64,000 nucleotides of DNA from Styela clava (lineage: Eukaryota): assembly GCF_964204865.1 (NCBI RefSeq), contig NC_135254.1, positions 10,788,001-10,852,000 of the forward strand, read 5' to 3'. Under the pieces are notes generated by a model. The model did not search any database. It was not told where the DNA came from and was given only the letters and a program-made list of their open reading frames with translations. Below, piece by piece: positions 5,753 through 52,500 of this stretch. The position numbers were made by a program, and so were the translations under genes. Numbering within the stretch: position 1 is the first letter of the stretch; every line of letters starts with the position of its first letter.

Positions 5753-8700
5753 TTAATTGATGTACGGATGTTCTTTTGTTGTGCTATTATTCATTTCTTC
5801 GTATTGATGATCTCCGTCTTTTATTTTCTCATAATTATGCGGGATTTCATAATTTTCTTCTTTCTCTTCTCTTAACTCATAATTTCCGGAGTTCAGTTGT
5901 GATGTTTGAATTTCATCAAAGTTTTCATAATAACTCGGGACGTCATTAACAACCCTATTCATCTCTGAAAGACGTTGTGGTTGAGTTGCGATTTTTTGAG
6001 AATTCCTTCAGTAAACAAAAAATAAGTTAGAATTAATTAATAAGTAGGATTTTAAATAAGAAACATTGGATTTGTTTTCGGAATTGCTTCTACCATAGAG
6101 GAGTTAGACAAAACAATCGACGAAAATGTTAGAGCCCAGTATTGCAGACATTGTCCCAGACATTGAGATTGCGCATACAGCTGTATAAAGAGACACACCT
6201 TACTGATTCAATTAAGAGTGAATACTCCAAATTTTCGGAAAATATACACATTTTGTTGTAGTATCGAACATTTCTCACCTCATTTTTTTGTTTCTACAAA
6301 TCAGCGAACCAATTCCAAATAGAATGATTGCAAGAATCAATGTGACTATGGATGAAATAATTGCAACCAATAAATTGTCGTGGCCTGCAATATATTTCAA
6401 CATATAGTAAGAAGAAGCATAAACGTTAAAAAAATTATCAGCATTGAACACAGGTTAAACATGAGAATCAGAAAGTCAGTGAGCATTTTATGTAACCACA
6501 AAATAGTAGTTTTAAAAACTCTGATTTTGTGCACTTAAGACTAATGTCTCTTATAATTTGTAAGCTATATAATCTTACCACAAGAAGTCGTTGTAGTAGT
6601 AGTGATTGCACTAGAGGGAAAGAAAATGTTTATCTTCGTAGATTCTGTGTTATTTGCATTGGCAGACAATGTGGAAGTATGTGTCATGTCATTGAGAGTT
6701 GTAAATTTATGATAAATATTTGTTGTTGTCATTTCAGCAGGCGCCGCGGTGGACGTTGTACTACAGGCAGTGTCTCTTGAACAATTGGTCGTCTGAAGAA
6801 AGTAATTGTGTTTAGCAATTTTTCGATACAATATATGTACGATAATATTTGTATATTCCAACATTTATTTAAATCCGAAGTTTAATGGTTGAACGTTCTT
6901 CAAAAAGTTAAACAAATTTAAAAATGCTCACAAAAATATTAATTCACACGCTTATGAAAAATAACGTCGGGCGCCCTGAATAAGAACTACTAGATATTCA
7001 CTTTTACGACTGCGGCTTATACGCTGTGAAATAGTAAAAACTATTCACACAACATAGAATGATGATCCTTTTTTTTTGAACCTTTTAGAAAATCAGAAAT
7101 TATTAACTTACTACAAATAATGGCATTTTTTTTATTATTTCTTACCTCAAAATTAGAACCAATGCAAATATTGGGCCCCGTTCTTCCCGAGTCAATGCAT
7201 GTTCGATTACGTACTTTCATCATTGAGCTGCAGTTACATGTACTCAACGATGACCAGGTTTCCCAGTATCTTCCTGCACAGTGTAAAGATTTAAAACAAA
7301 AGTTTTTTTGCCTGTTTTGATTAGAATGGCTGTATTTTTGTACGTAGTAAATAGGTTTAAACTTAAATAGGAAAAATTGCCAATTGCTTCTTATTCGCAA
7401 TAAACCCTTCGAAACTCTACAAATATCGATGACTTGCCCATACACGCCTTCTCAAGCTGTAGTGCAATACGTCCGCAAACATGGTCGGCGGAGAAAGACG
7501 CAAACGATAAGCCATTAAGTGAACCACTCCGTGTCGACGAGAAGTCCAACACTCTTGCACATTGTCACATCCCTCATGAGATTCGAACCAGGGGCGACTA
7601 TACCATTGGGCAAGGTAGGCTAAAGCCTTGAAGCCTCTAACCTCGTAGGCCTTAACAATCAATTTTAAGCTCATATTCACTGTAAATCCTTTTTGAATTG
7701 TGAAGCCTTCAGAGTTCCAGAATAATGTCACTTTAAAACTTTATATTTTTATTATTCACGGTAATAATTCCAAATATTTACCGATTGAAAGATTAAAAAA
7801 TTTGAAATATGGCCGAATAAATGATTTTGTAATAATACATCAACTTGAAATCCCTATTATGTTATATCCCATGGTTTAAATTTGTCCCAGATTCGAACCT
7901 GCATTCCAGCCGATCTAAGTATATTCTCCATTATTGTATTAATGCACTTGTTTTGTCGAATTTACAAGCGGTGACCGGGCTCCTGATGCAAATGTCTTTA
8001 GATTGTAGTAGGCCCGTGAGAGATGTTACATGATTTTTCTTTTTTTTTACTCAAAGCGTCTCCCTGATAACTCAGATAAACATTCCTGTTAAAATCTTAC
8101 GACTTTAGTGTTGGTACTAAGTTGGCGATATAGTTGCACAATGACAGTGAAACTTGAAGCAAACATTATAATAATCATTTATGCACTAATATTTAATCAA
8201 GAGTAGTTAGTTTTGAACGGAATATTTATGATAGAATTCATAGTCGCACTCACTAGGAATAAAAAAAAATCGTATCTGATTAAAATACGGGCGGTCGCTG
8301 AAATGCCAAGTGCCACTGAAATCATACCGTATTTTGTTGGCGCAAAGAGCAACAGCGAATACCTGTTGATGCGATACTTGAAGTTATTTAAATTAATGTT
8401 ATAAAGTTTATATAAACTAACGATCAGTAAACATTGGTATGATTTAAATGAACTAAATTAAAGTCAATGGCATTAAAATACATAAATAGTTATTTGTATA
8501 AAGAAAAAATGACATAATCTACAAATTAAGTAGACTTATTACATTAAAAGTTTGTTACCGATTAATCGTTGACATACAAATTCAGTTGGTGCATTCGCAG
8601 CGCAATCGACGTCATACCACGGTACATTTGCAAAATACGCGTTAAACCACCCCATAGCACCACAAGATTGGGTACTCTCACTAGAAGGTTCTCCTGAGTT

Positions 8701-9379
8701 CCAGTTAGTGTAGGTTAGTTCTGAATTGTCATTCCATATGAAGGTATTACTTGTGCCAACTTCCTTCAATCCAATATAAAATCCATAGGGTTGTCCTGTG
8801 CACAATAAAATGCCTTATCTTAGGGTAACGTTTTGTCGTGTGTAATATTTATCCAATATGAACATGGCTGATTGGGGCTGTTGAACATAATTGGAAACAT
8901 GTGCGAACACTTGAATACTGATGAATTAAGAATTCATAAACCAATGTATGGGGATTTCTCGCGCAAATCCCAAAACCCATGAGCAAAAGATTCTAATGAC
9001 CATGATGATAAATAACCTTAAGTAAATTCATTCAGGGATTTGAAATAAAAAGTGAAATGTCCTATTTACCTGAGGTAGCTGAGACTTGATTCTGAATAAA
9101 CGTTTGAATCTCGCTCGTTTTAATCATTGCCATCTCACCATCATTGTTTTTACAGAATGTTTCACCATCGGCATATGGTTTTATATCATCTTTTCCGGAT
9201 ACGTAATATTGGTAACTTCCAAATGCATTCCACTCACCTCTACCTGGTTCGCAAAAATAAAAAGTTTATGAATAAGCAAATAATTTGAAAGACATGATAT
9301 ATAGTATATACCAACCTGCGTTAACGACAGCAATCATCCAAGGAAATAATCCAATGTATATAAAAAGTTTCTCCTTCAT
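5753..9379 (-). CDS. Receptor A1: signal peptide-CTLD1-TSP1-mucin stalk-TM-acidic Tyr tail, ~391 aa (exons 9379-9316, 9243-9070, 8795-8559, 7273-7146, 6792-6579, 6384-6279, 6005-5753)
   Basis: Exons are phase-compatible and total 1176 nt. Signal MKEKLFIYIGLFPWMIAVVNA; CTLD (FC..GEMAMIK, FYIGL, WNSGEPS, WYDVDC, FVCQ); TSP1 (WETWSSLSTC..RNRTC); Thr-rich stalk; TM LLVAIISSIVTLILAIILFGIGSLI; tail motifs YENF, YELR, YEIP, YEKI, YEEM, YIN. Confidence 0.88.
7420..7915 (-). mobile_element. tRNA-derived SINE fragment, interrupted by a MITE
   Basis: Reverse-strand B-box GGTTCGAATC; body resembles the SINE at ~33950-34225. Boundaries approximate. Confidence 0.55.
7589..7890. mobile_element. hAT-like MITE
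   Basis: Starts CAGGGGCG and ends with degenerate GTCCCAG; perfect 8-bp TSD attcgaac (7581-7588 and 7891-7898). Confidence 0.6.
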
Positions 9380-16124: not shown

Positions 16125-16595
16125 AAACCATATTCAAAGTTCTTCACAATGCAAATGGGAAGAATATTATGCGGTTAACGTTTCTTGACTTTGTCTAAGT
16201 TATATTCCGGATATCAGACATTTTCAAAAAAATATATTTTTCACACATACCAACTTAAAACACATGTAAATCTATATCTGTGTGCGTGTTTTTTCATTCA
16301 GTGTATCGGTGGAAACCAAAATTAAACATATTAGGACAATCCATCTATTATATGCTGATAGCCACCACCACATTCAGAGTGTAATAAACTGGGTTAGGAA
16401 TGCGGAACCGGAAATAATCTGGTCCACCGAGCTCTGTTCTTTATGTCTTGACTACTTCCTTATGTAATTGACTACTTCCATGGTTTCTTTTTTGGAGTGA
16501 AATTGTGGATGACACTTCATAAAAATAACGCCAACTGACAGCTCCAAACTTGATTGGAATTCTGATTCGAATTGATAATACATTCAATTATTCAG

Positions 16596-18769: not shown

Positions 18770-21700
18770 TCAAGCATCATATTCATTTTCAGGCATTGAA
18801 TTGATGTACGGATGTTCTTTTGTTGTACGATCATTCATTTCTTCGTACTGATGATCTCCGTCTTTTATTTCTTCATAATTATGTGGGATTTCATAATTAC
18901 CTTCTTTTTCTTCTCTTAACTCATTATTTCCGGAGTTCAATTGTGATGTTTGAATTTTATCATATTGTACATAAGAAACCGGGACGTCATTAACAATCCC
19001 ATTCATCTCTGAAAGACGTTGTGGTTGAGTTGCGATTTTTTTAGAAATTCCCCTGTAAACAACAATAAACTTGAAATAATTCACACGTAGGCTTTTGAAT
19101 AAGAAACAATGGATTTTTTTTTTTATTGAATTGCTTCTAATAACATATATTAGCTAAACGTCATCGTGATCGGACGAAAATGTTAGAGCCCAGTATTTAA
19201 GACATTGTTCCAGACATTGAGATTGTTACTGCTGTATAAAAGATTTTATTTAACTTATTCAATTGAGAGGAAATACTCAAAATCGTTTAAAACTTACACA
19301 TTTTATTGTTGGATCGAACAATTCTCACCTCATTACTCTGCATCTACGAATCAGCAAAACAATTCCAAATAAAATGACTGCAAGAATCAATGTGAAAATG
19401 GATGAGATAATTGCAACCAATAGAATGTTGTGTTCTGCAATATATTTCCATATATAATAAGAATCATAAACCTCAATAAATTTATCAGGTGCGACCACAA
19501 ACAACTACCTAACAGTACAGAAAACGGGTTAAATATGAGTTGTAAAAGACAAAAAGTCAGTGAGCATATTGAACCACAAAATAGTAGTTTAGAAAATCAA
19601 ATTATAAGCACTTGAGACTAATGTCTCTTATAATTTGTAAGCTATATAATCTTACCACTAGAAGTCGTTGTGGTAGTATTGATTGCACCAGTGGGAATGA
19701 GAATGTTTATCTCAGTAGTTTTTGTGTAATTTGCATTGGCAGACAATGCGGAAGTATGTGTCATGTCAGTAGGAGTTGTAAATTCATGATATTTATTTGT
19801 TGTTGTCATTTCAACGGTTGAAGGGGTGGGCGTTGTTTCACAGGTAGTGTATCTTGAACAATTGGTCGTCTGAAGAAAGTAATTGTGATTTAGCAATATT
19901 TCGATTCAATATATGTACGATAATTTTTTATTTATTTCAGCGGTTATTTAAATCTGTATAATGTTCTTCAAAAAGTTTAAAAATATAAAAAAGCTCACAA
20001 AAATATTGATTCACATGCTAATGAAAAATATCGAAAGTGAATAATTCAGATGAATCAGAAACCTTTTTGGTAATTCGTCAATAGCCAGGTCCTGCGACCT
20101 GAATCAGAAATATTGAAGATTCACTTTTGAAAGTGCAGCTTATACATTAATATAGTAAAAACTAATAAAAAAAACATAGAATGATAATCATTTTTCTTTT
20201 AAGCACTTTAGAAGATCAAAAATTGTTAAATTACTACAAAAAGTGGCTTTCCCTATTTTTTACCTCAAAATTAGAACCAATGCAATTATTGGGCCCCATC
20301 CTGCTCGAGTCAATGCATGTCCGATTTCTTACTTTCATCATAGAGCTGCAGTTACATATACTCCACGATGACCAGGTTTCCCAGTATTTTCCTACACAGT
20401 GTAAACATAATCATACGTACGATTCCTCTTTTTATTGATTTTATTCGTGGTCCATATTCCAACTATATCATATTCTAAACTTTATGCTCTTTTAATTTGT
20501 TGAATCTTACAACTAAATATAGATTCAGAGCCAGGTTTTTTTTGTCATAATTGAAACTAAGTTAAGTTGGAGTTCGTGTAAATTTGTATTCCTTTTCGCC
20601 GTTTGAATTCGTCTCAACTCGCTTGTCACCAGACATTTTACTCACCGATATGGCGTTGACACACCAATCCTTTCAACCCTGTTGCTCCAGTGTCACAGTC
20701 CATCGTATGCCATAGAAGATTTGCGTCATAAGTTTTTTGTTCACCTATCGATACACAAGTCTGTGTTCCACTATCAGTATCATGATTGTTTGGTTCTCCT
20801 TCATCCCAACGAATGAATGAAAGGTTTGTTCCGTCGTTCCATTGAAACATCGACTTTGATTTGTCATAAACAAGTCCAATGTAAAATGTGTATGGTTCTC
20901 CTGTAATAAGACATATCATATCGTCACGCTAATAATCGAATTGCGTAAGTCATTTTTGGCGATTTCGAGTTTTTTTTATAAATTAGGTATTTATGTAATG
21001 CTGCGCACCTGTCTGTTAAATCAGATTTTATTTTAAGAATTCCGAAACCCATAAAAATGGAGATTTAGTATTACAGGCACATTTGTGCAATTGTTTCGTC
21101 ATAATGAATTATCATTGTTACCGCAGGACTATTGTGACGTCACAAAGGCAAAATAACCTCGGCCAAGTATTTTCGAGTTTTTGCATCTCGGATTCTAGCT
21201 TAGCGCGTATTAATTTGAATTTTTACTACAGTATAGGAAGACGTGCACTTGTGATATTCACTGTCCGAGTCCAATTCACCTTGGTTGGCTTTTATATTGG
21301 GTGCATTGCTGTTTTATTCTTTATATTTATTCTTAGTCTAATTTCGGTGGATGTGCAGAACATGTTATATCGATGAAATATATATTTTTAAACATAAAAA
21401 ATAATGTAATTGAAACTGATTAGCTATTTTGGGGATTAGACATTGTAGATACTGAGAATTACATTCGTTTTTGGAATGTTTTGTTTTCAGGACTTGTGCA
21501 TATAGTAAAGATGCAAAATTGCGTATGTCCCCAAGTCATACACACATTTCTGCCTAAGTCACAGTGCGCCATTATGACGTCACAACCTAAATCCGGCTAC
21601 GATCAAAACATTGAACCATGGCAAATCATTGACTCTCAATGGCACAACAATATCATTAGGAAGTTTTTTACGTTTTTCTCAAAACTGCTAAAAATGACTT

Positions 21701-24494
21701 ACGCAATTCGGTTATTAGCGTGACGATATTGTTTTATACTGCTAGGGCACGTCTAGACAAGTGTTTTAGCGATGAACAATCGGTTGAAGCGTTAGCTCTA
21801 ACTGTGTTGGCATTGCAGATTACGCATCTTCGTTTCAAAAGCCATCCCACGTCACCCGTGGGTGCAATGAATTGATCAGACAACGCCAAACAGTTATAGA
21901 ATCTCCCTATATATTGTTAGATATCAGTGGTTTTTGTACAGGTCCGCGTTCGCGTCCTTGTGTGTGTCATATCCCACAGGGATCGGACTTATTGCATTTC
22001 GTTCGTAATGCCATCAACGACCGAAGTTATTATATCGGCGCAATACATACACATTCATTGACTTTCAATACTTACAATAATGCACGTACCTGATCCATCA
22101 AAAATGAGTGCTTTTATAAATCTTTGTGTTATTTTATTCTTTATTAATGCTAATTCGCCTCCTTCATTTTTGCAAAATGTTTTCGAATATTCATAAGAAC
22201 TTGAACTACCACCCGGTGAAACATAATATTCATAACTTCCATTGGGAAACCAGTTTCCTCGACCTGTTTCACAAATGAAATACCAAATATTTGAAAAATA
22301 CCAGAATCTCGAAACATGCGCAGCGAAAATGCACGGTGGAACGAGATGCCATCAGGTATTGCAGGCGCTTGGTTTTCTTTAAATACTAAAGTCAAAAATA
22401 AAGAGAAGCGGTAATATAGGGACTATTTAAAATTTTTTGGAATATTAGCTATTTTATCACCTTTTGATTAGAGCGAATAGCATAGTTAAAGGCAACGGCG
22501 TGAGTCAGTGGAAACATTCGTAACATAATTACAAAAAGACGTGTGTTCGACGTGACTTATGTGAAAGAGTTTAACAGAGCCCATTGTTCATTTCCCAATC
22601 TCTTTTTAGCATTAATTGTAATAATTGGTCAGTTTTCGGGAAATGAAGACGTAATAATATAATTTTAAAATGAGTTTTCCATTCTCACCTAGTTGAGTCG
22701 GAGCTGTGTTCATAAAGGCACAGGTAGCGGATGGCGTGCATATCTAAAAACAACGTTCAAATTGTTCATTTGGGCATGCAAGTATTTTAACCGAGCCAAC
22801 TATAATAAACAAGCATTTTGAACGGAAAGTCAATCATAATAAGTTATATATCTAAAAAACGTTTACTTCAGACTGTGTTGCCGTGTCATTGCATAAGTAT
22901 GGACCAATTCTTCCGCTGTCAACACAAGTTCGGTTAGGCTGTCTTATTCCCGGGCATTCACAACTTCCCCAAGATTCCAATGATCCCCAATTCCAGCCTG
23001 CAGAAACATACAGAGTAAAATAGGAAGTATATTCTTTACAACTAAGTATTCTGGATCAATTTTGTATCAGTAAATGTAAATCAAGATGAACTTTTAATAC
23101 AGTATGAGCGGAAGAAACAATAGCATAGCTGTGCAAGGTATATAAGTAGTGATAAGATCAAAAACAGTTAGTTATTTTTGCTTGCAGTAAATTTATGATA
23201 TTTTGAAACTGCTTTCTTTAAACATAATTTATCCTGTTAAATTTAAAATATTGGACCCAGATAACCCAATTCTCAATTTTGCTCAAAGCAAAGTTAGTCG
23301 CACTCATTCGGAATAAAGTATACTAGTATCTGATAAATATACGGGCGGTCGCTAAAATGCCAAGTGTCATTGCAATTATACAGTATTTTGGTGGTGCAAT
23401 AAACACCAGCGGATGCCTGCTGATGCGTTACTATAAGCAGTTCAAATTAATGCTATAATGAGCATAATCATGGGCAGTAACTCTTGACATGGTTAAAATT
23501 TACCAAATTGGCGTTAAAATATATAAATAGTTATTTGCATAAAGATTATGACTCTTGTGTTTTACAAAGTTCAGACGACCATTTATTGCATGAAAGATTA
23601 GTCCGTATTCACAAAAAATACATAATCTACAAATTAAGTATACATTTATTACAAACAAATGTTGTTACCGATTAATCGTTGGCAGACAAATCCAGTTGGC
23701 AAATTCGCAGCGCAGGCGACGTCATACCACGGTAGATTTGCATAATACGTGAGAAACCATCCCATAGCAACACACGGTTGGGGTCTCCCACTAGAAGGTT
23801 CTCCTGAGTTCCAGTTAATGTAGGTTAGTTCTGAATTGTCATTCCATATGAAGGTATTACTTGTGCCAACTTCGTTTAATGCAATATAAAATCCATAGGG
23901 TTGTCCTGTGGATAATGAAATGCCTTAGCTTAGGGTAATAAAACGTTTTGTCGTGTGTAATATTTGTCCAATATAACCATGAATGATTGGGGCTGTTGAA
24001 CATAATTGGAAACATGTGCGAACACTTGAATACTGATGAATTAAGAATATTAAGAATTCATAAACCAACGTATGGGGATTTCTCGCGCAAATCCCCAAAC
24101 CGATGAGCAAAGGATTCTAATGACTATGATGATAAATAACCTCAAGCAAATTCATTCAGGGATTTGGGATAAAACGTGAAATATCCTATTTACCTGAGGT
24201 AGCTGAGACTTGATTCTGAATAAACGTTTGAATCTCACTCGTTTTTATCATTGCCATCTCACCATCATTGTTTTTACAGAATGTTTCACCATCGGCATAT
24301 GGTTTTATATCATTCTTTCCGGATACGTAGTATTGGTAACTTCCAAATGCATTCCACTCACCTCTACCTGGTTCGCAAAAATAAAGAGTTTATGAATAAG
24401 CACATAGTATGAAAGACCGGATGATATATCATATATACCAACCTGCGTTAACGACGGCAATCATCCAAGCAAATATCAAAAGTTGCTCTTTCAT
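18770..24494 (-). CDS. Receptor A2: SP-CTLD1-TSP1a-linker-CTLD2-TSP1b-mucin-TM-acidic Tyr tail, ~602 aa (exons 24494-24443, 24367-24194, 23905-23669, 22997-22867, 22743-22689, 22263-22090, 20900-20646, 20391-20264, 19869-19656, 19434-19329, 19052-18770)
   Basis: Eleven phase-compatible GT-AG exons, 1809 nt. CTLD1 has EPS/WYD and CTLD2 has EPN/WHT; two TSP1 exons; TM ILLVAIISSIFTLILAVILFGIVLLI; tail motifs YDKI, YEIP, YEEI, YEEM, YINS, YDA. Confidence 0.9.
20921..21726. mobile_element. Tc1/mariner-type MITE (~806 bp) in A2 intron 6
   Basis: ~36-bp TIRs tcgtcacgctaataatcgaattgcgtaagtcatttt / aaaatgacttacgcaattcggttattagcgtgacga with TA on both sides; empty site in B2 near 52890; second copy at 27827-28645. 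Confidence 0.88.
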
Positions 24495-25985: not shown

Positions 25986-26897
25986 TTAGACGTCTTTTGT
26001 CACAATGACATATTCATCACCTTTTGGACCAATAACTGTCCTTTGTATTCTATTCTGCCTTCTGACTGCCGTGGTCTTATCAATTTCCTCGTATACATCC
26101 TGTTCACATGATTTAAAACTTGGATTGACCGGTGTTGCAACTTTTATGTAGTCATCTTCAAGACTCCCTTCTTTAGCTAGAGATGGACGGATAAAACATT
26201 TTTGGGGATGTATTTATTTGTTTTTGAATAACGTTTAATTTTAACATTGTAATTATTTTCATCATCGTTGTAATATTGAGTGTCAAATTGGGACAATTTC
26301 TCGAGTGCAGAATACATGTTTTGAAGAGAATCGACTTACATATATCACGTACCTTGGACAGAAGTAAATTCATAAAGGTTCGTGCTTTGAGTTGTTTTTG
26401 TTGATCGGGTTGGTATAATATATGTCGATGCCGTTGAAAAGATTTTGTCTACCGTAGTCTGAGAACTGGTTTTATCCGATGTCGATATTGCCTCTAGAGT
26501 TGTCTGCTGGACTGATTGGTTGACGAAGTGCAAAGCAAAGACAGTCGCCTTATCATAAACTGTTGGGGCGATGTTGTCAGCGTTTGCAGGTGATGTTGTC
26601 GATTCGTCCAACCCGAAACCAGATGAGCCCAGAACAGCTATTTAAAAAATCACAATAACTAAGCTTCAACATTTATGATACTTGAGTCATTCAGAGTAAT
26701 TTTTTATAAAAACACGAAAACCCTGATACATTTTTATTATTTATTTCACATCTTCGATTCTAGAAAGTAAAGTTTTGGTGCTATCTAAATCTATATTATG
26801 CAAATTTTTTAATTTATATTGCAACAGTATTGCAAAACTCTTACTTGTAAATTCCCTGACACAGAAGATCGATCCAGTAAAAGAAGAAGAATCGCAT
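25986..26897 (-). pseudogene. C': internally deleted pseudogene of receptor C (exon 1 26897-26845 frameshifted, exon 2 26637-26353, tail remnant 26189-25986)
   Basis: Exons 1-2 match 59561-60115. A 4-bp gatc duplication frameshifts exon 1. The CTLD and TM exons are missing, and intron 2 runs directly into a 67-codon Tyr-motif remnant (DDYIKV, DVYEEI, DEYVIV) ending in TAA. Confidence 0.8.
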
Positions 26898-29971: not shown

Positions 29972-32900
29972 TTATTTAATATTGTCAATATTTGCATATG
30001 GGTCATCGTTTACTTCAATGTAAGTCCCTTCAGCACCTCCCGTGACATCGGAATTCTGATCAGTTTCAGGTTTATTGACCGTTGCAAAAGTTACTTCATT
30101 GAAGTTTGAAGAATCTTTTTTTGGGGGTTTCTGTACAACAGCAAGAGTCACTTTATTGTCGTCTCCATCTGAAGAAGTTTCCTGTTTCACGGGGACTTTC
30201 GATTTGGTATCCTGCACGGTAGCGTAAGTCGGACCAGACACTAGTTTTTCATCAAATGAATTTTCTGATTGCGACATTTTTTTAGAATCTTCAACGTTGT
30301 GTTTTTGAACTGTTGCGTAAACCACAGGGGAGTTTTCGTCAGGGTAACCGGAAACAATAATTTTTTCGCTCTTTTTTTGCTTCTTAACGACAGCGTATTG
30401 AGTTTCTGATACATCTGTCGCATCCGAATCTTTTGAGTATTTGAATAACTTTTTCGATTTTGTTTTGTTTACAGCAGTATATATAGCATTGTTGTTGCCT
30501 TCTGTGGTCACATCGTTTATCTGATTCTGATGGTTATCAGCAATGGCGCAGAGGGAATCTGGCCCGTTTGATGAGTCAACTTGAACTTCGGGTAAGAGAG
30601 AATTATTGTCTGCGTGTCCATCATGGGTTACAAACGTTTGATAACGAAGAGTTTCCGTACTTTGAGAATTGTCTCGACCTGATTCCACATCTCCGGGATC
30701 TGTAGCAGTAAAACGTGTTAGTTATATATATTAATATGAAGCACCTGTTTTGACACACTTGAAGCATTTTCGTTTGGAGGGGATGTAAAATAGGTCGGAA
30801 CCATTCAGAATAACTGACTACAGATTTGAACACGGACTCATAACCTATTACCTACTCGAGTTACTTATATTAATATATTCACCAAAACTGAATGCATGAT
30901 AAAGTTCATAAAAAACAACAATTCTGAATTTTTACGTGGAAGATTCTATTTAATATCAGTTGAGATCGTTGCAACAGGTTGTGATTTAGGTGATAATACA
31001 TAGAAATGAGTATTTCCTCTTATTTGTCATACAATTACTAGCATTTGGTAGACAGTAAAGTATAGGAATTCATCAACCCAGATACAAAACGTTGACGTAA
31101 TACTTTAAATGAAGTTACATTAACTTACGCTCTGACATTATATCTCTCGGATTAAGTTGATCTTCCATTTCTAACCCTTCATTGTAATTGCCGCGCTCTC
31201 CTGTGTTTATGATTCCGTGTCCTCTTCTGAAAGCAAAACTTCAGATTATATACATTCTCTGTGAAATGAGTGAACCCTTAGAAGAATATTTGATATTTGT
31301 TCACTATTCATAAGAGATGTAATGTCATAATGTTGGATATATTACCTCTTTTTGAGTTGCTTTGAAAGTATAAAAACAACGATAAGTGCTAAAAGAAGAA
31401 ACCCTCCGATAGTTCCCGCGACTGGTCCAATGATTGATGTTTGTGCAGCGGGTGTAGATGGACAAAGAATACCAATCGTTGAAATGTCAGAAATTTCTGT
31501 GTAAGATAATATAAGAATTGATATCTGTATAATATAAATGATCAGAAATCTAGTTTAATACATTATGTTCATTTAGACAAGCTAACACATTTACGCGAGC
31601 TGAAATTGAATTTAAAATATTTTGCAACGCTCACATTTGAAAATTAATCGTACGAAAGTTAATTGACTGCTCCATCCTGATGTTATATATTCTAATTGGT
31701 CTTTTGATCGATGAACAAATCTTGGCCACGTTCTCACGTGCATTTTAATAAATCACTCAATTGTAGAAAAGGTGAAACTGATTGTATCAACTTATGATTT
31801 GTTATGGCAAACTATTTCTAATGCTGTTATAATCATACCACGTTACGTTTGTTGGTATTTTTTGAGTTTGGTTTAAGGCGGATTTTGCCAATATTAACTC
31901 TGATCAAATATAGATGGTTGCTTATATGCAGCTAATAGTATAAGATCATGCCCGAAAATCATAAATTGCTGTTATTTTGCGCGTTGCGTGTTGATTGTTA
32001 CTAGATTCTGGATTTATAGTGACTGTAGAATTCTGCTCAAAGCATGTAGTGTCGGCAGTAGACGTAGAATCAGTGTTTGTGGGAGTAGAATCAGATTGAG
32101 TAATTCTTCCGGTCGTTGTTTCCATTACCGTTGTTGCTACAGACAAAATGGGCGATGTGACTTCAAAACTACTTCCTTCGCTTGTTTCGTACGTTGATTG
32201 TATAATTGTACTTGTAGGGATAGTGGTTTCCAATTAGCTACTTGGTATTTCTGCGCTACCGAAAGTTGTCATTTCATTTGCCATCGTCGTCCTCCTCTCA
32301 TTTGTCTGTGTGAGAGACATGGTTGAAGGCCCTGTAATCATCGTGCTTTCCGTATTAAAAACGTGGCTATTCGGTGATCTGGACAGTTGAATGGGCAAAA
32401 ATTTATGCCCGTTCCTTCTGTGCTATTAATTTTAAATTAAGATGTGAATTAAAAAGTCACTGTCGTCATTTGGTCTTGTTCCGCACCTGCAAATGAAGAA
32501 GAAATGCCTTGCAAGTTAAAGGTTGCGTTTGCCACCACATACACACCGGCGGTCATGGTAGTCATTACGTCGATGGGTTCTTCGTTTCTGGACGAGGTGG
32601 TTAACTCACCAGTTGTGGTTAATGGAGATGTTTTTTCCGCAACAATTGTCGTATAACAAGTTGGGTCTTTTGTACAATTTCCAGTCTGTTAAAAATATTA
32701 AATCAAACTAAGGGAAAATTGAAATTGATCACTATTATTACAATTCCCAAACATGACTTTTAAATTGCAAAAGTTTCTGTAACATACCCGGAAAGCATTA
32801 ATATTTTCAATATACAAAGGCTATGATATAGTATCCCTCTGATTGTTCCACCGCCAAAACAATTTAATCATACCGTGAAAATAAGTTCTACGATATACGC

Positions 32901-35900
32901 TATAATATTTTGAGGTTCAAGATCATCTCTAACATGCTAAAGTAGAATATTCCGAATGGAGAATGCCATCACTTTATAACGTGGTTACTCGAGAATGGAA
33001 AACTATCATTTATTATAGCTGTGTATACATTTGACATTGAGTTTAAGCTACACTGCAGTACAAAACTGCAGATAAAATAAACAACCACGACGACAAGAAA
33101 ATAATAAAATGTACATACTAAATATTTAGCTAATTCATACCTCATTGCGACTGCCAGCACAGGCATCGGGCCCTGTTCGCGGAGAATTAATGCATGTGCG
33201 ATTTCTCAATTTGATTATGGTTGAGCAGTTACATTCACTCCAAGAAGACCAGGTTCCCCAGTATTTATCTAGATTGGAACAGTTCGTTTTTATCAATGCG
33301 ATCAGCTAGATCAGGGGTCACCAACGCGTTGCCCGCGGGCATCAAGTCGCCCGCGAAGATCATACAAGTTGCCCGCAGGCATGTTCCAAACTAAGCTTAA
33401 TAACGGCGCTTATAAGTGAGCTACATCATCTAAATGTTGTCCTGCTATTCTTGTATAAATCACACTTATATGGAACTGAGAATGACACTATATTATTTAT
33501 TGTAACCATCAATCTGATTTTTATTTGACCTCAGTAATGTGACGCGTCAATTAACACTTTTCCAATTATGACATCACACTGATATCACTTTCCACGAACC
33601 CGCGCTTTTTCTTGTCCGCTAGTTTGTGGAGCAGCAGTAATACAATTATAGATTCCAAAGAAAAATGGCAAAAAACGATGAAAAACCCACCATTTTCACG
33701 ATGAATGGGAGGTGGATATATTTTTACCACCATAAAACAGACTGCGTGTGTCTCATTTGTGGGGCGATTGTAGCGACAGTAAAGCGAAGAGATATTTCAC
33801 ATCTTGTCACGCAATCTACCACGCTTACTATCCACTGGTCAGCACTGTACGGGCAGCTCGCGATTCAAATCATACAGCAATTCTATTTTACGAGACCATT
33901 GTTTGGTTCAACCTATCTTTGCGAATCAACATTTTCGACATAAACTCAGGATAGGATTTACATATTTATCCCAGGGGAGAAGATAGCCGATATGACGACT
34001 TAACCATATGACGAACCACGGCCTCTCGTCCGGTTACCATTCCATGTCGGGTATGAGATTAGTTAGTTATTTGCTTTTGAAAGCATGGACTTGATGGCGA
34101 AGGAAGCGGTTACGTGAAGCACCCAATGGCGGCGAGGCGTCCAGCAATCCTCTCGCACTTAACTATCCCCGCATGTGATTCTAACCTGCGAACCTAGCGC
34201 TTAGCACGATGGGCCACACCGCCGCGACTCACTCCACCAAGAACAAACACTGAACACGCCTCACTAATGAAAATGTACAAGACTTGCTCAGAGTTACAGT
34301 GTCAAGCACACGTCGAGGTTTTGAATGCAAGTGTCATTGATAGAAATTAATTTGCTACGTTGTGATAATCGTTTGACTTTCTGAAGGATCCACTAATGCA
34401 GGGGTCTCAAACTCGCGGCCCGCGGGCCAATTGCAGCCGTCGGTTAGCTTGTTGACTGTTAACTATTGACTTTGTTAAAGACAAACAAAGGCAAAAGGTC
34501 AACCGTTATTCCTCCATCTCTACCTGGTTTTACTTTGAAATGCTGAAAGTTTTTTGCGCATTTGCAACTCGCCACGGCGAAACCATTGGGAACCGCTATA
34601 TTGCACCGTTTTTCTATATCAATTTGACAATTTCACCCTTTCATTTTTTGGTGTTCCGCGAGGAGATATAAAAAGTGTAAGTGTTGCGTGGCCGAAAATG
34701 GGAAACTCTCACGTAGTGCAAAACAAAATATTTTATTATCTATTTCCTGAAAGAAATATGCGGTGCGGTAACCTACCAGTACCATACCTGTAGGCCTGCG
34801 CCTGATATTCGATCGCGGGACCGCCTGAAATAATTCAAAAACAATGTTCCATGATTTTTGACGTCACAATCACTAACGCTTAGATTTATCTTGATACATT
34901 GTAACCATGTTTCCCATGTGGCGAAACATCACTGTCCATCGGCTAAATGCTTGATTGAAACATCAGCGCAACAGTTATTACAAAATGGAATTTTATAATT
35001 TCGCACATCCCTAAACGTGTCGTTGGAAGTGAAGTTTCAGTAAACAGAAAGGTTGGTGATGAGCACAGACAATTTCAAAAAACTGGGAAATGCAATATTT
35101 CTTTGTTGAGCATAGGAGCATCCCGACATGTTTTATCTGCACAGTTAAAGATGCAGTGCACACGGAATACAATTTAAACGAATTGCTAAGCTTTTATTGT
35201 GGAAAACCAGATGCAACCCGGACTCATCCAGACTCTGCCCTAGCGGCCCCCAAGTAAATTGAGTTTGAGACCTCTGCGACTAATCCTATCAGTGTCTCTA
35301 CTTGACTAAATACCAGTAATTATCAATAATTGAAGTTTAATTCAGCAAACTGGCTTTTTTGGAATAGTACATTGAACTGGAAGCCCGCAGCTTAATCTGT
35401 ACCCAGAAAGTAGCCCTCGGCCTCGAAAAGGTTGGTGACCCCTGAGCTAGATAGTAATATATAGATATATAAAAGTGGTGGTTCAGCAAAGTTCTAACTT
35501 TCTAACTAACTTTTTTGCAAAATGTTCTCGAATCTTCATAAGATCTTGAACAACCACCCGTTGAAACATAGTATTCATAACTTCCATTAGGAAACAGATT
35601 CCTCAATCTGTTTCACAAATGAAATATCAAATAATAGAATAAAGACAGTATCTCGAAAAATGCGCAGTAAAAATGCGTGAGCTAGTGAAAACATTTGAAA
35701 AATAATTACAAAAAATACGTTGACTTTGGCGTGACTTATATGGGAGCGAATAACAGAGCCCATTGTTCATATTGTATCTCTTTTTCCCGACGATTGCAAT
35801 AAGTGTCCAGTTTGATGGGAAATGAAGACGTAACAATCTAACTTTAAAATGGGTTTTTCATTCTCACCTTGTGGAGCCGGAGCCGTGGTCAATAACGGCA

Positions 35901-38900
35901 TAGTTGCATTGCAGGAAGCGGATGGCGTGCATATCTAAAAACAACGCTCAATTTGTTCAATCGTGCATGTAGGTGTTTTAACCAAACTAAATGTAAATCA
36001 AAAATTTAATATTTAATGTAGGATGATCAAAATATGATTTTTCTCTGGCAATGAAATCTGAATTAGTTGGGTCCGCACTGAAGGGTTCGCAAGTCACATT
36101 CAAAATTGTATTATGGTAATATTTCATTACGTCAATCAATCTGTTCGAATTAATAACGAAATACGACTAAACTGACTTGAATAAATTTACCTGGGTGGCA
36201 ATGCTAGGTGTAGCTATTATTGTAGTCAAGGAAGTTAGGGACAAAAATCTACAAAACGGTTGCTTCACAACGAAATTGAGTCTCAACATGATTATGTACG
36301 GGATTTTTTTTTTATTTCATTGGGAAGTTAGTTTTCGAACAACACACTAATCGACATGCTAGAACCCTATAAAATTCCAAACTTAAATGTAATAGTTATC
36401 AATACAGCCAGGTAATAAGCAAGCATTTTGAACGGAAACACAATCATAATGAGTTATATACAGTGGTGGGATTCAGCCGGTTCGCACCAGTTCTATAGAA
36501 CCGTCTCACGGAATTTTATGGGATCAGCGAACCGGTTAGCATTACTGGCTACTGTCAATGTTTTATTTGTAACAGAACCGGCTGAAAAAGATGACTTTCG
36601 GAAGGAACCGGCTGTTACGGACTGCTAATAATCAAATTTCATCAAGTTGTTTCATGTAATCAAGTTGTTTACATTTTTAGATTTTGTTTTTAGTTGTTTA
36701 GGGCTATTGCATTCAGAATAGTTATATGTTTATGATGGAATAGGAATTATAGCTCCACTGAATATCCCTTATTGTTATTTATTTGCAGTTAAGTTATTTA
36801 TCTTAATTGTGATTTACGTTGTTCACTTTTGTAAATCCCCCGTTAGGGTACTCATTACCCGTTACGGTACTAGATAGTATACCCATTACCCCGGTTTGGA
36901 CGTTTCGTATTTGTTCTCAAGACGTTATCTACACCTGCAAGTTACCTATATGTTTACTGTCATTATTTCTGGATTTGCTGCTTGATGATTAACTTTCGAC
37001 ATTAACGGTGACCGTACATTTGAACCCACGTACATTTGAACCCATGTGTATATCCACTGGTTCAATCTATATGCTGGTGCTAAAACCCATGGGTTAGGGT
37101 TAGTATGGGTTCGGTTCCATTACATTTGAACCCACGTACATTTGAACCCATGGCAATTGCACCTGTATGCTATTGCACCCATAGAATTTTTTTTTGTTTT
37201 TCGGATAGTTAAACCCATACTAACCCTAACCCATGGGTTTTAGCACCCGCATATAGATTGAACCCGTGGATATACACATGGGTTCAAATGTACGTGGGTT
37301 CAAATGTACGGTCACCTATGGGTTCAACTATCCGTAAAACAAAAAAAAAATTCCTAGGTACAATAGCATACAGGTGCAATTGTCATGGGTTCAAATGTAC
37401 GTGGGTTCAAATGTAATGGAACCGACATTAACATTTGAAGTGCTGTGGAACCTTTTCAATATAAGTTTCAAAGCAATTCAGATTGTTTGACAGTGTGGAA
37501 CTGGGGAGGGATTTTGCAAGGTTCAACTAAGATCGTATCAAATTATTATTGTTTGCACCGAGCAAAAGGTTCGGAGTCTACAGTACTCTAAAGTCAAACG
37601 CTAGAACTCTAGTCCAAATATCCAACGCCGGCTGGCAAAATATTTGAATCCCACCACTGGTTATATATATATATGTAAAACAATTTTACTTCGAACTGTG
37701 ATGCCGTATCGTTGCAAGCGTATGAACCAATTCTTCCACTGTCAACACAAGTTCGGTTTCGCAGCTTCATTCCCGGGCATTCACAGCTTCCCCAAGACTC
37801 CCATGATCCCCAATTCCAGCCTGCAGAAACATGCAGAATAAAATAATAGTTATTTATTTTACAACCGAGTATTTCGAAGCAATATGATATCAGTAAGTTT
37901 AAATCAAGATGAACTGTAATATAATATGAGCGGTAGAAAAAATAGCTTAGCTGTGCAAAGTATAAATAGCGATGAGATGACATTAAGAAAATTTCAAAAC
38001 ATTATCAAAATCTTTCCTGCACTCATAGCTAATCAAAAAAAAGTTCTGTACTGAATATTTTAGATAAAATTTAGCTGACAGGTTTTTGGCGGTTTTATCG
38101 AAAACTGAGAATTCTTCTGACAGTAATTTAATGATATTGCGCAACTGTTTTCTTTAATAAACATAATTTATCCAGCTAAATTTAAAACATCTGACCCAGT
38201 TAACCCAATTTTCAATTTTTTGTAGGAGAATTTACTCAAAGAAAAGTCAGTCGCAATCACTCGAAAACTGTAAACTAGTGTCTGGTTAAAAGGCCGGCAG
38301 TCGCAGAGATGCCAAGTGCTACTGAAATCAAACGGTATTTTGATGGTGCAATAAGCAACAGCGAATACCTGATGATGTGATATTTGAGCACTTTAAATCA
38401 ATGCTATAATAAACTATGAGGCAGTAAACATGGCATGAGCAAAATTTACCAAAGTGGAGTCAATGTCATTAAAATATATAAATATTTATTTGTATAAAGA
38501 AATAGAAATTGCGTGGAAAATTTAGTATACATTTATTACAAATAAAGTTTTTTACCGATTACTCGTTGACAGACAAATCCAGTTGGCGAATTCGCAGTGC
38601 AATTGACGTCATACCACGGTAGATTTGCATAATACGTGTGCCACCACCCCATAGCAACACAAGGTTCAGGTTTATCACTAGAAGGTTCTCCTGAGTTCCA
38701 GTTAGTGTAAGTTAGTTCCGAATTGTCATTCCATATGAAGGTATCGTTTGTGCCAACTTCCTTTAATCCAATATAAAACCCATAGGGTTGTCCTGTAGAC
38801 AATAAGATGCTTTAGAGCAGAATTTCCCAAACTGGGCTCCCTTAGCTTAATTGAGCAGTAAAAAGCATTAATTACGTTTGTGTTGCTACATATATGAAAC

Positions 38901-39578
38901 ATTATCCTTCCTCATCCTTTCTCCTGGTTAGACACATAAATTGATTCGGCATACCATAGGGATCCGACAAAACTAAGATTTACAAATATGGGTACGCGAC
39001 TTAAAAAGTTTGGGAAACCCTGCTTCAGATTAATGGAAAGTTATGTAAGGTTGTATGTAAACATGGCTGGTTAGGACTGTTGTACATAATTGAAAACAGG
39101 TAAAACAAATACGTAAAGACTGACGAATTAAAAATTCTCAAACCAACGTATTGAGAATTCCAACACAAATCCCAAAACGCATGAACAAAGATAAAAATCA
39201 TAATGTTAAATAACCTTAAGCAAATTCATTTCGGGATTTGGGGTAAAACGTGAAATGTCTTGTTTACCTGAGGTAGCTGAGATTTGATTCTGAATAAACA
39301 TTTGAATCTCGCTAGTTTTTATCATTGCTATCTCACCATCATTGTTTTTACAGAATGTTTCACCATCAACATAGGATTTTTTATCATCTTTTCCAGATAC
39401 GTAGTATTGGTAACTTCCAAATGCATTCCACTTACCTCTACCTTGTCGTAAAATAAAGAGTTTATGAATAAGCACATCATTTGAAAGTCATGATGATATA
39501 TAGTATATGCCAACCTGCGCTAACGACGGCAACCATCCAAGCAAAAATCCCAACGAATATCAAAAGATTCTCCTTCAT
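29972..39578 (-). CDS. Receptor B1: SP-CTLD1-TSP1a-linker-TSP1b-short stalk-TM-ITIM-like tail, ~617 aa if decayed parts are skipped (exons 39578-39515, 39441-39268, 38792-38556, 37820-37690, 35934-35868, 33268-33141, 32685-32610, 31496-31346, 31226-31129, 30699-29972); alternatively a pseudogene
   Basis: The listed exons are open and phase-compatible (1854 nt). The model requires skipping the dead CTLD2 remnant and using the internal GTGAGT donor in the mucin exon. Confidence 0.65.
31975..32609 (-). pseudogene. Decayed long mucin-stalk portion of B1
   Basis: Homologous to B2 54116-54720 but has in-frame TAA at 32451-32449 and 32439-32437, a frameshift, and a deletion of the distal splice donor. 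Confidence 0.8.
33950..34225 (-). mobile_element. tRNA-derived SINE nested in the hAT element
   Basis: Reverse strand has A-box-like gtggcccatcgtgctaag and B-box-like ggttagaatc; it interrupts the hAT dimerisation-domain remnant. Confidence 0.65.
34399..35276 (+). mobile_element. Second hAT (Charlie group) deletion derivative, nested
   Basis: TIRs caggggtctcaaactc / gagtttgagacctctg; near-TSD (c)cactaat / cgactaat; frameshifted transposase N-terminus RKVGDEHRQFQK/WEMQYFFVEHRSIPTCFICTVKDAVHTEYNL at ~35045-35180. Confidence 0.8.
35513..35607 (-). pseudogene. Truncated remnant of the first CTLD2 exon in B1
   Basis: Homologous to B2 52527-52620; CGA->TGA stop, 1-nt deletion, and loss of the rest of CTLD2. 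Confidence 0.8.
36461..37659. mobile_element. Non-autonomous hAT element in B1 intron 4
   Basis: TIRs cagtggtgggattca / tgaatcccaccactg; perfect 8-bp TSD gttatata; empty sites in A2 (~22845) and B2 (~51215). Confidence 0.9.
37007..37423. mobile_element. ~204-bp MULE-like MITE containing an inverted copy of itself (37113-37316)
   Basis: Outer 9-bp TSD gacattaac and inner 9-bp TSD tatgggttc; subterminal repeats tacatttgaaccca. Confidence 0.85.
38818..39022. mobile_element. hAT-like MITE in B1 intron 2
   Basis: Imperfect TIRs cagaatttcccaaact / agtttgggaaaccctg; imperfect TSD ctttagag / cttcagat; absent in A1, A2 and B2. Confidence 0.75.
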
Positions 39579-46674: not shown

Positions 46675-47080
46675 GTTATATTCCGGATATCAGACATTTT
46701 AAAAAAAAAAAAAATTTTTACACATACCAATTTAAACGACATGTAAATCTATAAATGTGTGCGTGTTTTTTTCATTCAGTGTATCGGTGGAAACCAAATA
46801 AACATATTAGGACAATCCATCTATTATATGCTGATATAGCCACCACCACATTCAGAGTGTAATAAACTTGGTTAGGAATGCGGAACCGGAAATATTCTTG
46901 TCCGCCAAGCTCTGTTCTTTATGTATCATCGACTACTTCTGGTTTCTTATTCGAGGTAAAATTGTGGATAACACTTCATAAAAATAATGCCAACTGATTA
47001 CAGCTCCAAACTTGATTGGAATCCTGATTCAAATCGATGATACATCCAATTATCCAGGAATAATACATTCAATTATTCAG

Positions 47081-47151
47081 GCTGTACTTGGGAATTTGAT
47101 ACTGGCAAGGAAAGCCAACATTGCTTGACAATACAATAAAACTCAGTTTAG
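47081..47151 (+). pseudogene. Orphan exon downstream of VWA3, with internal stop
   Basis: GCTWEFDTGKESQHCLTIQ* (TCA->TAA at 47137-47139); homologous to 3877-3947. Confidence 0.5.
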
Positions 47152-49517: not shown

Positions 49518-52500
49518 ATGAATGAGAAACTTTTGATATACATTGGATTATTTGCTTGGATGATTGCTGTCGTTAGCGCAGGTTGGTATATATTATATAT
49601 CATCACATCTTCTAATTTTGTGCTTGTTGATAAACTCTTTATTTTTGCGACCAGGTAGAGGTGAGTGGAATGCATTTGGAAGTTATCAATACTACGTATC
49701 TGGAAATGAAGATATAAAACCATATGCTGATGGTGAAACATTCTGTAAAAATAATGATGGGAAGATGGCATTGATTAAAACGAGCGAGATTCAAACGTTT
49801 ATTCAAAATCAAGTAACAGCTACCTCAGGTAAATAGGACATTTTACGTTTTACCCCAAATCCCCGAATGAATTTTCTCAAGGTTATTTATCATCATGGTC
49901 ATAAGAAATTTTGTTCATGTGTTTTGGGATTTGCGCAAGAATCATTCATACGTTTATTTAGAAATACTAATATTACTAATTTGTCAGTCTTCATGTATTT
50001 GCACATGCTTTCAATTATGTCCAACAGCTATAATCAGCCATGTATACATGCAACAAATATTACACACGACAAAACTTTTTATTACTACAAGGCATTTTAT
50101 TGTCTACAGGAACACCCTATGGATTTTATATTGGATTAAAGGAAGTTGGCACAAGCAATACCTTCATATGGAATGACAATTCAGAACTAACTTACATCAA
50201 CTGGAAGAAGGGTCAACCTTCTAGTGAGAAACCTGAACCGTGTGTTTCTATGGGGTGGTTTCACACGTATTATGCAGATCTACTGTGGTATGACGTTGAA
50301 TGCGTTGCGAATGCACCAATTGGGTTTGTCTGCCAGCGATTAATTGGTAAAATTTTGTTCTCTATTTTGTTTATATTGTCTAGACTTCTGTTTTATGTAA
50401 CAAATCGCTGTCTTAACTTTGTAAAACACAAAAATGATAATCTTTTTGCAAATAACTATTTATATATTTTGATGCCATTGACGTCAATTTAATCTATTTT
50501 TATCATGCCAAGGTTTACTGCCCCATAGTTTATAGCATTAATTTTAAGTTATTAAAGCATCTCATTAACAGGTATTTGCTGGTGGTGATTGCACCATCAA
50601 AATACTGTATGATTTCATGGACACTATACATTTCTGCGACCGCCCGAGTTTGAGCAAATGCCCCTAAGAAAATTGAGAATTGAGTTATCTGGGTCCAATG
50701 TTTTAAATTCAACTGGATGAAATATGTTTATTCGCGAAAGCAGTTGCACAATATCATTTATTTGCGGCCAGATGAATTTTCAGTTTTATATGAAACAAAA
50801 CTGCTAAAAACCTGTCAGCGGTTCAATTTCAATTTCATTAAAAATGTTTCTTACAAAACTAACTACTTTTAGCTATTAGTGCAGAAAATATTCTGAGAAA
50901 GTTTTTAAGTTTTCAGTAATGTCATCTTATCACTAATTATACCTTGTACAGCTATGCTATTGTTTCCATCGCTGCTACTGTATTAACTTGAGTTAAATTT
51001 ACTGATATAAAATTCTCAGAATACTCAATTGTACAAAATATATTTTCTCTGTTTTTTTCTGCAGGCTGGAATTGGGGATCATGGGAGTCTTGGGGAAGTT
51101 GTGAATGCCCGGGAATGAGACAGCGTAACCGAACTTGTGTTGACAGCGGAAGAATTGGTCCATACTCATGTAATGATACGTCAACACAATCGGAAGTAAA
51201 CTTGTTTTACATATATAACTCATCATGATTGTCATTCCGTTCAAAATGCTTGCTCATTACCTCGTTGTATTAATAAATATCACATTAAAGTTTAGGATTT
51301 TATAAAGTTCTAACATGTCGATTAGTGTGTCGTTTCAAAACTAACTCAAAAATAGAAATACATTTTTTTATGCTTACCGTTGAGACACGCTTACGTTAAA
51401 TAGCTATTGTTTGGTTGATTTTTGTACTCAACTCAACGACATTGCCACACAGGTAAATTTATTTGAGTCAGTTTAGTCGTATTTAGCTATTAATTGAAAC
51501 AGATTGATTAATGTAATAAAATAAGTCCATATGACAGTTCTAATTTTAAATGTAACTTGCAAATCCAGTCTGCGCCGCATCAATTTGGATTTCATTGTTA
51601 CATTTTTCTATTTTTTTGGATCATGTAATAAATTTCAGAGTTACAGTTAATTTGATTAAAACACGTACATGTACGGTTGAACAAAATGAACGTTGTTTTT
51701 AGATATGCGCGCCATCTGTTTCCTGCAATGCAACTATGCCTTTGATTCCACTAGGTGAGAATGAGAACCTATTCTAGAATTAGGTTGTTATGTTTTCATT
51801 TCCCAGCAAACTGACCACATAGTACAGTTCTTGCGAAAATGAGATAGTGATATGAACAATGGGCTCTGTTATTCTCTTTCACATGAGTCATGAACCAGTT
51901 TCTATCAATTATCTTTCTCTAGTGAAACTGTATAATTTTTTTTTTATTGTAACTTTGGCACGAATATATATATTTTTTTTATTGGCTGAAAAGCAATATA
52001 GACTGAGTATATACAGATACACGGTACTCTGTACTGGTAACGGAACCGTAAGGGTACCTGTACCAAGCGTAACCGGTAAAGTAGGTTACCGTTGTCGTTT
52101 ACTGATAATGTTGAAGGACAGCGTCAACGACAGTAGATTCAAAGCTCTAAAAAAAAAATTTAAATTACATATTTGAACCTTTGCTGTTGCTGCTCAATAA
52201 CCAGCTTTGGTCCCCCGCGACTACTCTTTCCCAGTAAATCTGTGTAAATAATATTTTCTCGTACTTTGTGTTCGATTGTTGTTAATTTACTGGTTGGAAA
52301 AAATAAACTTGACTTGACTCTAATCGAAAGGTGCTAAAACGACTTACAATCGAAACTTTTAAATGCGTCAATATATCAACGTTTTTCTTTATTATTTACT
52401 TTGGTACTTAAATTAAAGCAAGTGCTTGCGATAATTGATGCTATCTCGCTCAATCGTGCATTTTCATTGCGAATTTATCGAGATACTGATATTGTATAAT

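Follow-up and report, generated by a model that had tools for sequence, protein, structure and literature searches.

A tandem cluster of 24 C-type lectin receptor genes in the tunicate Styela clava with a positively selected predicted ligand face and two tail types

Among invertebrates, tunicates are the nearest kin of the vertebrates, in which killer-cell paired receptors include Ly49, a group of type II proteins. Vertebrate Ly49 and KIR receptors are encoded in fast-evolving tandem families in which similar ectodomains occur on activating members and on members with a tyrosine-based inhibitory motif of immunoreceptors (ITIM), with recombination and duplication among members, and activating KIR signal through a charged transmembrane (TM) residue and an adaptor (PMC2213150). 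In the tunicate Botryllus schlosseri, the fester family and the fester co-receptors (FcoR) are clustered, copy-variable type I receptors that carry ITIM, hemITAM and other tyrosine motifs; FcoR belong to the immunoglobulin (Ig) superfamily, have tail-less partners and are tied to the fuhc locus (PMC12582321). Other ascidian blood-cell receptors with tyrosine-based activation motifs of immunoreceptors (ITAMs) or C-type lectin domains (CTLDs) include a Halocynthia hemocyte ITAM glycoprotein and the type II, CD94-like lectins of Botryllus and Ciona (PMC5465252). The oyster lectin CgCLec-HTM, which has a C-terminal TM segment, QPS and WHD motifs and a tyrosine activation motif, binds lipopolysaccharide and bacteria and signals via Syk (as reviewed in PMC12842671). 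Here we describe a family of lectin receptor genes in a 64,000-nucleotide stretch of the Styela clava genome (NC_135254.1, positions 10,788,001 to 10,852,000; hereafter, the window), which contains four of its members, A1, A2, B1 and B2.

In each of these four genes, exon 3 is 237 bases long and encodes the second half of a CTLD. A query of the Styela clava genome with this exon returned 46 matches, 24 of which, at 69-100% identity, lie within 0.33 Mb (C5:10.51-10.84 Mb), and the four window exons are members of this tandem cluster of 24 C-type lectin copies. Exon mapping across 422 kb revealed a common gene plan: a signal peptide, a first CTLD (CTLD1), TSP1, zero to three units of a second CTLD (CTLD2), TSP1, a mucin stalk, TM and tail. 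The last two elements come as two unrelated modules, type A in 15 genes and type B in eight (one copy has a stop and no tail), and neither tail was detected outside this cluster. Clustered genes, closely related ectodomains and two tail types, the marks of a paired receptor family, are thus all present. Contigs from RNA-like runs show GT..AG joints for all 11 introns of B2 and for type A as well, and runs X5 and X9 each contain spliced contigs of both types; because paralogues cross-map, these joints show that the family is spliced, not that every copy is, and those seen for A1 and B2 possibly derive from paralogues. No run is recorded as RNA, and expression is read from the GT..AG joints alone; read-based tables of allelic differences were left unused, as contigs of paralogues cross-map.

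The cluster shares with Ly49 and KIR its tandem, fast-evolving arrangement, similar ectodomains on predicted inhibitory and activating members, and duplication and recombination among these members. Unlike them, the Styela proteins are type I, with an N-terminal signal peptide and CTLD and a C-terminal TM and tail (rather than the type II topology with C-terminal CTLD of Ly49 and CD94), and they have TSP1 and mucin spacers, an uncharged TM, an activating-like motif in their own tail and no cognate A-B face. Likeness to FcoR extends to clustered type I tunicate receptors with varied tyrosine motifs and similar ITIM sequences; the Styela genes differ in encoding CTLD-TSP1 proteins in a solitary species. 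By analogy, CgCLec-HTM would be the nearest functional precedent for type A, although it is single-domain, and the available portion of PMC12842671 describes no inhibitory counterpart, tandem cluster or selection analysis for it. For none of the ascidian receptors does the available portion of the tunicate immunity review PMC5465252 report a clustered family that has two kinds of tail, and it makes no mention of such a cluster. In the scanned proteins, only Lectin_C and TSP_1 pass Pfam cut-offs, and the Ig-superfamily ectodomain of FcoR is absent. Proteins of the mannose receptor family, a name given automatically to some copies by NCBI, carry at least eight CTLDs after their Cys-rich and FNII domains; here, one to four CTLDs alternate with TSP1 and no other family passes the cut-off. 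Judged by analogy, the cluster appears to work like vertebrate paired receptors and Botryllus FcoR, yet it lacks the structures that define either, and it is probably an undescribed immune recognition system resembling vertebrate killer-cell paired receptors. We found no description of this cluster in the literature, a search that did not extend to supplementary gene-family tables of S. clava genome papers. The same architecture was not seen outside Styela clava among databases in which tunicate coverage is thin, where the named hits, and those close hits whose species was checked, were all from S. clava and Atlas gave only generic lectin clusters under 0.9.

The original prediction, made from the four window copies, held that the first half of exon 3 is almost invariant and that the loops of the sugar-binding region vary, a pattern suggestive of diversifying selection on specificity. 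The peptides on which it relied are letter-exact (A1 8587-8691, A2 23697-23801 and B1 38584-38688 on the minus strand; B2 50214-50318 on the plus strand). In the residue numbering of P0003, the database protein of B2 (named uncharacterized Styela clava protein), a 25-residue stretch of the first half is identical between A1 and B2 and differs at two positions in A2 and at two in B1, such that 4 of its 25 columns vary compared to 20 of the 38 columns in residues 111-148, the canonical ligand face (Fisher p 0.0008 for the face against the rest of the domain). These four copies display 74 non-synonymous versus 13 synonymous codon differences within the face, compared to 38 versus 35 in exon 2, and the residue following WYDV is D, A, N or E, as had been read. 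The 17 other analysed copies repeat the pattern, with 25/38 face columns varying versus 12/25 and 24/56 elsewhere.

Codon site models were applied to a gap-free CTLD1 alignment of 135 codons from 21 of the 24 copies, leaving out one identical duplicate, one frame-shifted copy and one copy with a stop, using our own code rather than PAML (F3x4, M0 branch lengths rescaled, naive empirical Bayes). Neutrality was rejected, with twice the log-likelihood difference (2dL) reaching 36.9 for M1a/M2a and 39.3 for M8a/M8 (omega 2.5 on 17% of sites); the M7/M8 comparison, through which the original prediction was to be checked on paralogues, gave 55.9, with the ratio of non-synonymous to synonymous rates (dN/dS) elevated at face sites. 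Thirteen sites exceeded a posterior of 0.95 (40, 44, 46, 81, 113, 119, 120, 121, 130, 131, 132, 134 and 143), nine of which fall within residues 111-148 (Fisher p 0.0015). As to the expectation that selected residues would cluster on one surface, alignment to a solved lectin places these nine in the predicted ligand face, and sites 40, 44, 46 and 81 lie outside residues 111-148. Along the tree, dS by segment was flat (1.6/1.7/1.4/1.9) while dN was 0.57/0.67/1.67/0.40, making dN in residues 111-148 2.5 to 4 times that of the other segments. In a tree-free count, the proportion of non-synonymous differences (pN) was 0.165 in residues 111-148 versus 0.062 elsewhere (permutation p 5e-5, scan-corrected p 8e-4), and the synonymous proportion (pS) was not raised (0.150 versus 0.180 elsewhere). 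A mutation hotspot is ruled out by the flat dS.

When segments were tested on their own trees, only residues 111-158 were significant (15.5, p 8e-5); exon 2 and residues 80-110 each gave 2.3, leaving selection in those two segments unsupported. Allowing multi-nucleotide changes lowered the statistic to 25.4, and to 11.0 for the segment alone (M1a/M2a). Among subsets, the 14 copies without a noticed lesion gave 17.0 and the A group (n = 13) gave 29.7. The A tails showed no selection signal (2dL 2.0). A second comparison came from P0007, which carries the same locus name as P0003 in another accession series and which we infer to be B2 in another assembly. The two differ at 16/38 face residues, 10/56 residues of exon 2, 26/139 of CTLD2 and 6/308 of TM plus tail, a misassembly of P0007's version being possible, and the P0007 CTLD1 is at least 23 residues from every CTLD1 of this cluster. 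For three single-copy relatives, database versions differed at 0/41, 0/39 and 0/36 face residues; P0071 and P0159 gave no CTLD comparison, as P0159 is without the domain. Positive selection on lectin binding faces is common in itself, and it is the receptor context that raises the interest of this one.

Membership of CTLD1 in the lectin fold is well supported. P0003 matches PF00059 (Pfam E 3.5e-25), the cysteines C52, C124 and C144 are present in 24/24 copies and C154 in 23/24, and an AlphaFold2 model (pLDDT, its per-residue confidence score, 81) resembles CTLD structures (VIA Z 18.3, root-mean-square deviation 1.8 over 122 residues). Mannose receptor CRD4, DCIR/DCAR and related CTLD structures share this fold (Z about 18) at about 25-30% identity, and they differ from CTLD1 in that EPN/WND becomes EP[S/H/T]/WYD and in that the CTLD1 beta3-beta4 hairpin is aromatic and four residues longer. 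The core is nearly fixed (P116 24/24, W139 24/24, Y140 22/24, D141 23/24; position 117 is S in 20, H in 3 and T in 1), as are, to a lesser degree, the putative Ca2+ ligands E115 (21/24, Q in 3), E122 (16/24, Q in 7) and D141. The original prediction that EPS/QPS and WYD replace EPN/QPD and WND was thus correct as to their presence, but the replacements are family-wide and nearly fixed, and the diversity sits in the surrounding residues. Diversification of these motifs themselves is ruled out by their near-fixation across the 24 copies.

In CRD4 numbering, derived from an alignment of CTLD1, E115, E122 and D141 align with three Ca2+ ligands of mannose receptor CRD4, and the selected residues align with the flanks of its sugar site: sites 119-121 lie at about Tyr729/Gln730, site 143 at Asn750, sites 130-134 in the lengthened hairpin just past the Lys739 position, and site 81 three residues ahead of the Leu694 position, while sites 40, 44 and 46 were left unplaced. 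Tyr729, Gln730, Lys739, Leu694 and Ile749 of CRD4 lie in its extended sugar site, and Asn750 is near the Ca2+ site (PMC7949135). Crayfish lectins with EPS and QPS motifs bind mannose and galactose and agglutinate bacteria with Ca2+ (PMC9638144), and among bivalve lectins, ones bearing WFD, WLD or WHD are classed as dependent on Ca2+ (PMC12842671); by analogy, the variant motifs of CTLD1 do not rule out sugar binding. We infer from homology that selection acts on specificity. The ligand of CTLD1 is most likely a glycan or glycoconjugate, a proposal to which we give about an even chance, bound via a degenerate Ca2+ site with flanking subsites setting specificity; that it would instead be a protein has somewhat less than an even chance. 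The 22 distinct ligand faces among the 24 copies share one scaffold, and the selected residues are few, which would make the search for ligands and the swapping of specificities directly testable.

The two tails differ in their motifs. B tails contain repeated YA[T/V]V, and the ITIM pattern ([ILVS]xYxx[ILV]) occurs in 8/8 B genes with one to four matches, from one in B1 to four in B2 (shuffle p 2.5e-4 for the latter). A tails contain YEIP, YxxI-x6-YxxM (15/16 tail copies) and YIN, with three tyrosines invariant in 14/14 distinct tails and a fourth in 13/14; the A-type TM has no K, R, D or E and so lacks the charged residue of activating members. In A1, a stop right after YIN removes the last tail tyrosine. 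The same truncation is common to four A tails (window 5756; C5:10577797, 10591215 and 10780343). YEEI, YxxM and YxN are preferences of Src, PI3K and Grb2 SH2 domains. Elsewhere in the genome, a tandem-SH2 kinase open reading frame is most like Syk/ZAP-70 over its full length (E 5e-98; the top row of this comparison is an EGFR construct without a single passing stretch), and an SHP2-like gene is present (SH2 exon E 3e-34). The Syk/ZAP-70-like gene (L071:713-2560, minus strand) is intronless, its 615 codons forming one open frame.

Ectodomains of the two types are nearly as close to each other as to their own kind. The mean CTLD1 distance across 135 residues is 24.6 between A and B, 22.6 within A and 21.7 within B, and the tail label switches three times on the tree, with a single switch in 0/200 bootstrap trees. 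Sequence has been exchanged between copies: exon 2 of A_10567 is three bases from that of B_10717, and the start of its exon 3 is identical to that of A_10677.

Taken together, we think it likely, though well short of certain, that this is a 24-copy cluster of type I C-type lectin receptors in which the predicted ligand face is positively selected and the two tail types likely make activating and inhibitory immune receptors. On our best reading, these are paired recognition receptors, activating and inhibitory, locked in an arms race with the ligand that they bind. The outermost CTLD1, held out on TSP1 and mucin spacers, would bind a variable foreign or non-self surface, and receptor clustering would lead a Src kinase to phosphorylate the tails. 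A tails (YEIP, YxxI-x6-YxxM, YIN) may then recruit the Syk-like kinase, PI3K or Grb2 for activation, and B tails, with their repeated VxYATV-type motifs, the SHP2-like phosphatase for inhibition. Ectodomains would be shuffled by duplication, exon loss and gene conversion while selection keeps altering the ligand-facing surface. If true, this would mean that the logic of the vertebrate natural killer (NK) lectin complex evolved a second time, in another topology and with no need of TM adaptors.

Several results weigh against this reading. On pairing, an approximately unbiased (AU) test is compatible with a single clade of B ectodomains (p 0.063), and no A-B pair in this assembly has the same ligand face, the closest differing at 7/38 residues, unlike cognate pairs. 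The canonical Ca2+-dependent sugar-binding CRD (EPN or QPD with WND and five Ca2+ ligands) is not what CTLD1 presents: two of the five ligands are replaced, both asparagines, by S/H/T117 and Y140. As to the tails, a stop lies ahead of the ITIMs in 2/8 B genes (they are in frame before any stop in 6/8), an ITIM-pattern match also occurs in 3/16 A tails, and no A tail has a strict ITAM (YxxI/L-x6-8-YxxI/L), the last residue being M. On selection, the tree-free pN/pS of the face is just 1.11 with overlapping intervals, and omega above 1 therefore rests on the site models; the B-only signal is weak (5.2, p 0.02, n = 8), and CTLD2 also carries a signal, a smaller one (14.3, 5% of sites, n = 12 of 13 with one broken copy dropped). 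One of the CTLD2 selected sites adjoins an indel. Recombination is detected across the whole domain by the pairwise homoplasy index (PHI, p 0.008), 4/24 simulations with gene conversion pass the nominal 5% cut-off, and the segment-level statistics of 15.5 and 11.0 are near the simulated maximum; because gene conversion is present and such simulations pass, the nominal p values are too small.

That the loops vary merely as unconstrained surface, with gene conversion or copy decay inflating the site tests, would fit this recombination, the several broken copies, the pN/pS of the face and a whole-segment omega of 1.22 that is not different from 1. We nevertheless consider it very unlikely: M8a, which allows a neutral class, is rejected, and the signal persists with multi-nucleotide changes, per-segment trees and the 14-copy subset. 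In null simulations with 0, about 29 or about 90 conversion events, the maximum was 13.1 and 0/38 reached the 38.9 seen in the same pipeline, PHI detects no recombination within residues 111-158 (p 0.63), and in these loops the database versions of each single-copy relative agree completely. Another possibility is a diversified set of receptors that serves adhesion, larval settlement, feeding, sensing or some other role outside immunity, with the tails as generic phosphotyrosine scaffolds of no opposite sign. The tail motif patterns are short, TSP1 domains and mucin stalks are common in adhesion proteins, and distant relatives in the genome have tyrosine-rich tails mostly fitting neither motif. 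However, the gain and loss of copies, the presence of broken ones and a ligand face under positive selection are typical signs that a gene family is in conflict with a foreign genome, and the two tails, unrelated in sequence, sort cleanly into two motif types; we judge a non-immune role quite unlikely.

An alternative to the preferred reading, an arms race with a foreign or non-self ligand, is the proposal that the receptors read a polymorphic self ligand rather than microbes, in blood-cell allorecognition or gamete self-recognition, with inhibitory members sensing self and the face tracking host alleles. The divergence of the ITIM-bearing B2 between its two database versions, in the face with the tail nearly unchanged, would suit such a role, as would a face rich in aromatic residues, as in many protein interfaces. 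Allorecognition in Botryllus is under the control of polymorphic clusters of ITIM and hemITAM receptors, whose ITIMs (VAYAIV and LAYAIV) are similar to the B2 motifs; those tunicate receptors for which a role in allorecognition is known are, however, Ig-type (PMC12582321). The stronger selection in the A group (13 versus 8 copies) fits the pursuit of foreign ligands, and no linked polymorphic ligand gene was seen in the 422 kb, a weak point since the mapping covered only exons of this family. We hold a self ligand to be unlikely, and similarly doubtful the broader proposal that a solitary tunicate independently built an NK-like system in which one hypervariable, haplotype-variable lectin face, on an activating or ITIM tail, discriminates polymorphic self from non-self. 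If true, chordates would have solved allorecognition in a second way, alongside that of Botryllus with its Ig-type receptors.

The positions of the genes and their parts are collected in Table 1. The Z gene, a more distant relative at the end of the window, served as a control in the analysis.

Table 1. Lectin receptor genes and related features of the window, in window coordinates
Feature	Position	Strand	Description
Gene A1	5756..9379	-	Signal peptide, CTLD1, TSP1, mucin stalk, TM, short A-type tail (ITAM-like)
A1 exon 3	8559..8795	-	Second half of CTLD1; ligand face (residues 111-148) 8590-8703
Gene A2	18770..24494	-	Signal peptide, CTLD1, TSP1, CTLD2, TSP1, mucin stalk, TM, A-type tail (tail exon about 18770-19039)
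A2 exon 3	23669..23905	-	Ligand face 23700-23813
Z-gene copy remnant	26354..26632	-	Single exon, 60% identical to neighbouring Z gene
Gene B1 (P0008)	29972..39578	-	Signal peptide, CTLD1, two TSP1, mucin stalk, TM, long B-type tail
B1 exon 3	38556..38792	-	Ligand face 38587-38700
Gene B2 (P0003, 963 aa)	49518..57260	+	Signal peptide, CTLD1, TSP1, CTLD2, TSP1, mucin stalk, TM, long B-type tail (tail exon 56525-57260)
B2 exon 3	50110..50346	+	Ligand face 50202-50315
Z gene (P0160)	59561..64000	+	More distant relative; one EPN-bearing CTLD, TM, tyrosine-rich tail; continues past window end

Several observations bear on how the cluster was assembled. A1 and its neighbouring copy on the upstream side (window 8559-9700; C5:10783174 region) are identical in CTLD1, with exact tracts of 1186 and 534 bases, reflecting either a very recent duplication of 13.4 kb or an assembly artefact. 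An inverted duplication that takes in part of the Z gene has left B1 and B2 in head-to-head orientation (window 26189-33311 versus 53406-60280); in this end of the cluster, no genes other than B2 and Z lie on the plus strand. Along the cluster, B-type genes are accompanied by broken Z-gene copies (C5:10542000-10544400, 10707000-10708800, 10742300 and 10758100-10761300). In four B genes, the first CTLD2 exon is only a remnant (window 35514-35600 in B1; C5:10662068, 10715695 and 10767515) that is skipped by the database models, a loss of the domain through exon decay. At the other extreme, the A gene of P0001 (C5:10619669-10635073; 1456 aa) has three tandem CTLD2-TSP1-mucin units, and in run X9 a contig joint connects the CTLD2 end with the beginning of CTLD2.

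The family also has more remote relatives elsewhere, at C5:10481453-10486224, C18:15692666, C18:15702470, C1:27144822 and C3:17078710. Those read as proteins (P0071, P0074, P0157 and P0162) bear EPN or QPN; their tails are rich in tyrosine but different, and one of them repeats a YDD motif. Non-coding sequence of several kb upstream of the genes is 87-95% alike between A and B loci (window 125-4360, 13348-17101 and 43345-47543), and a short element near 52280-52320, which attracts many unrelated contigs, is probably a dispersed repeat.

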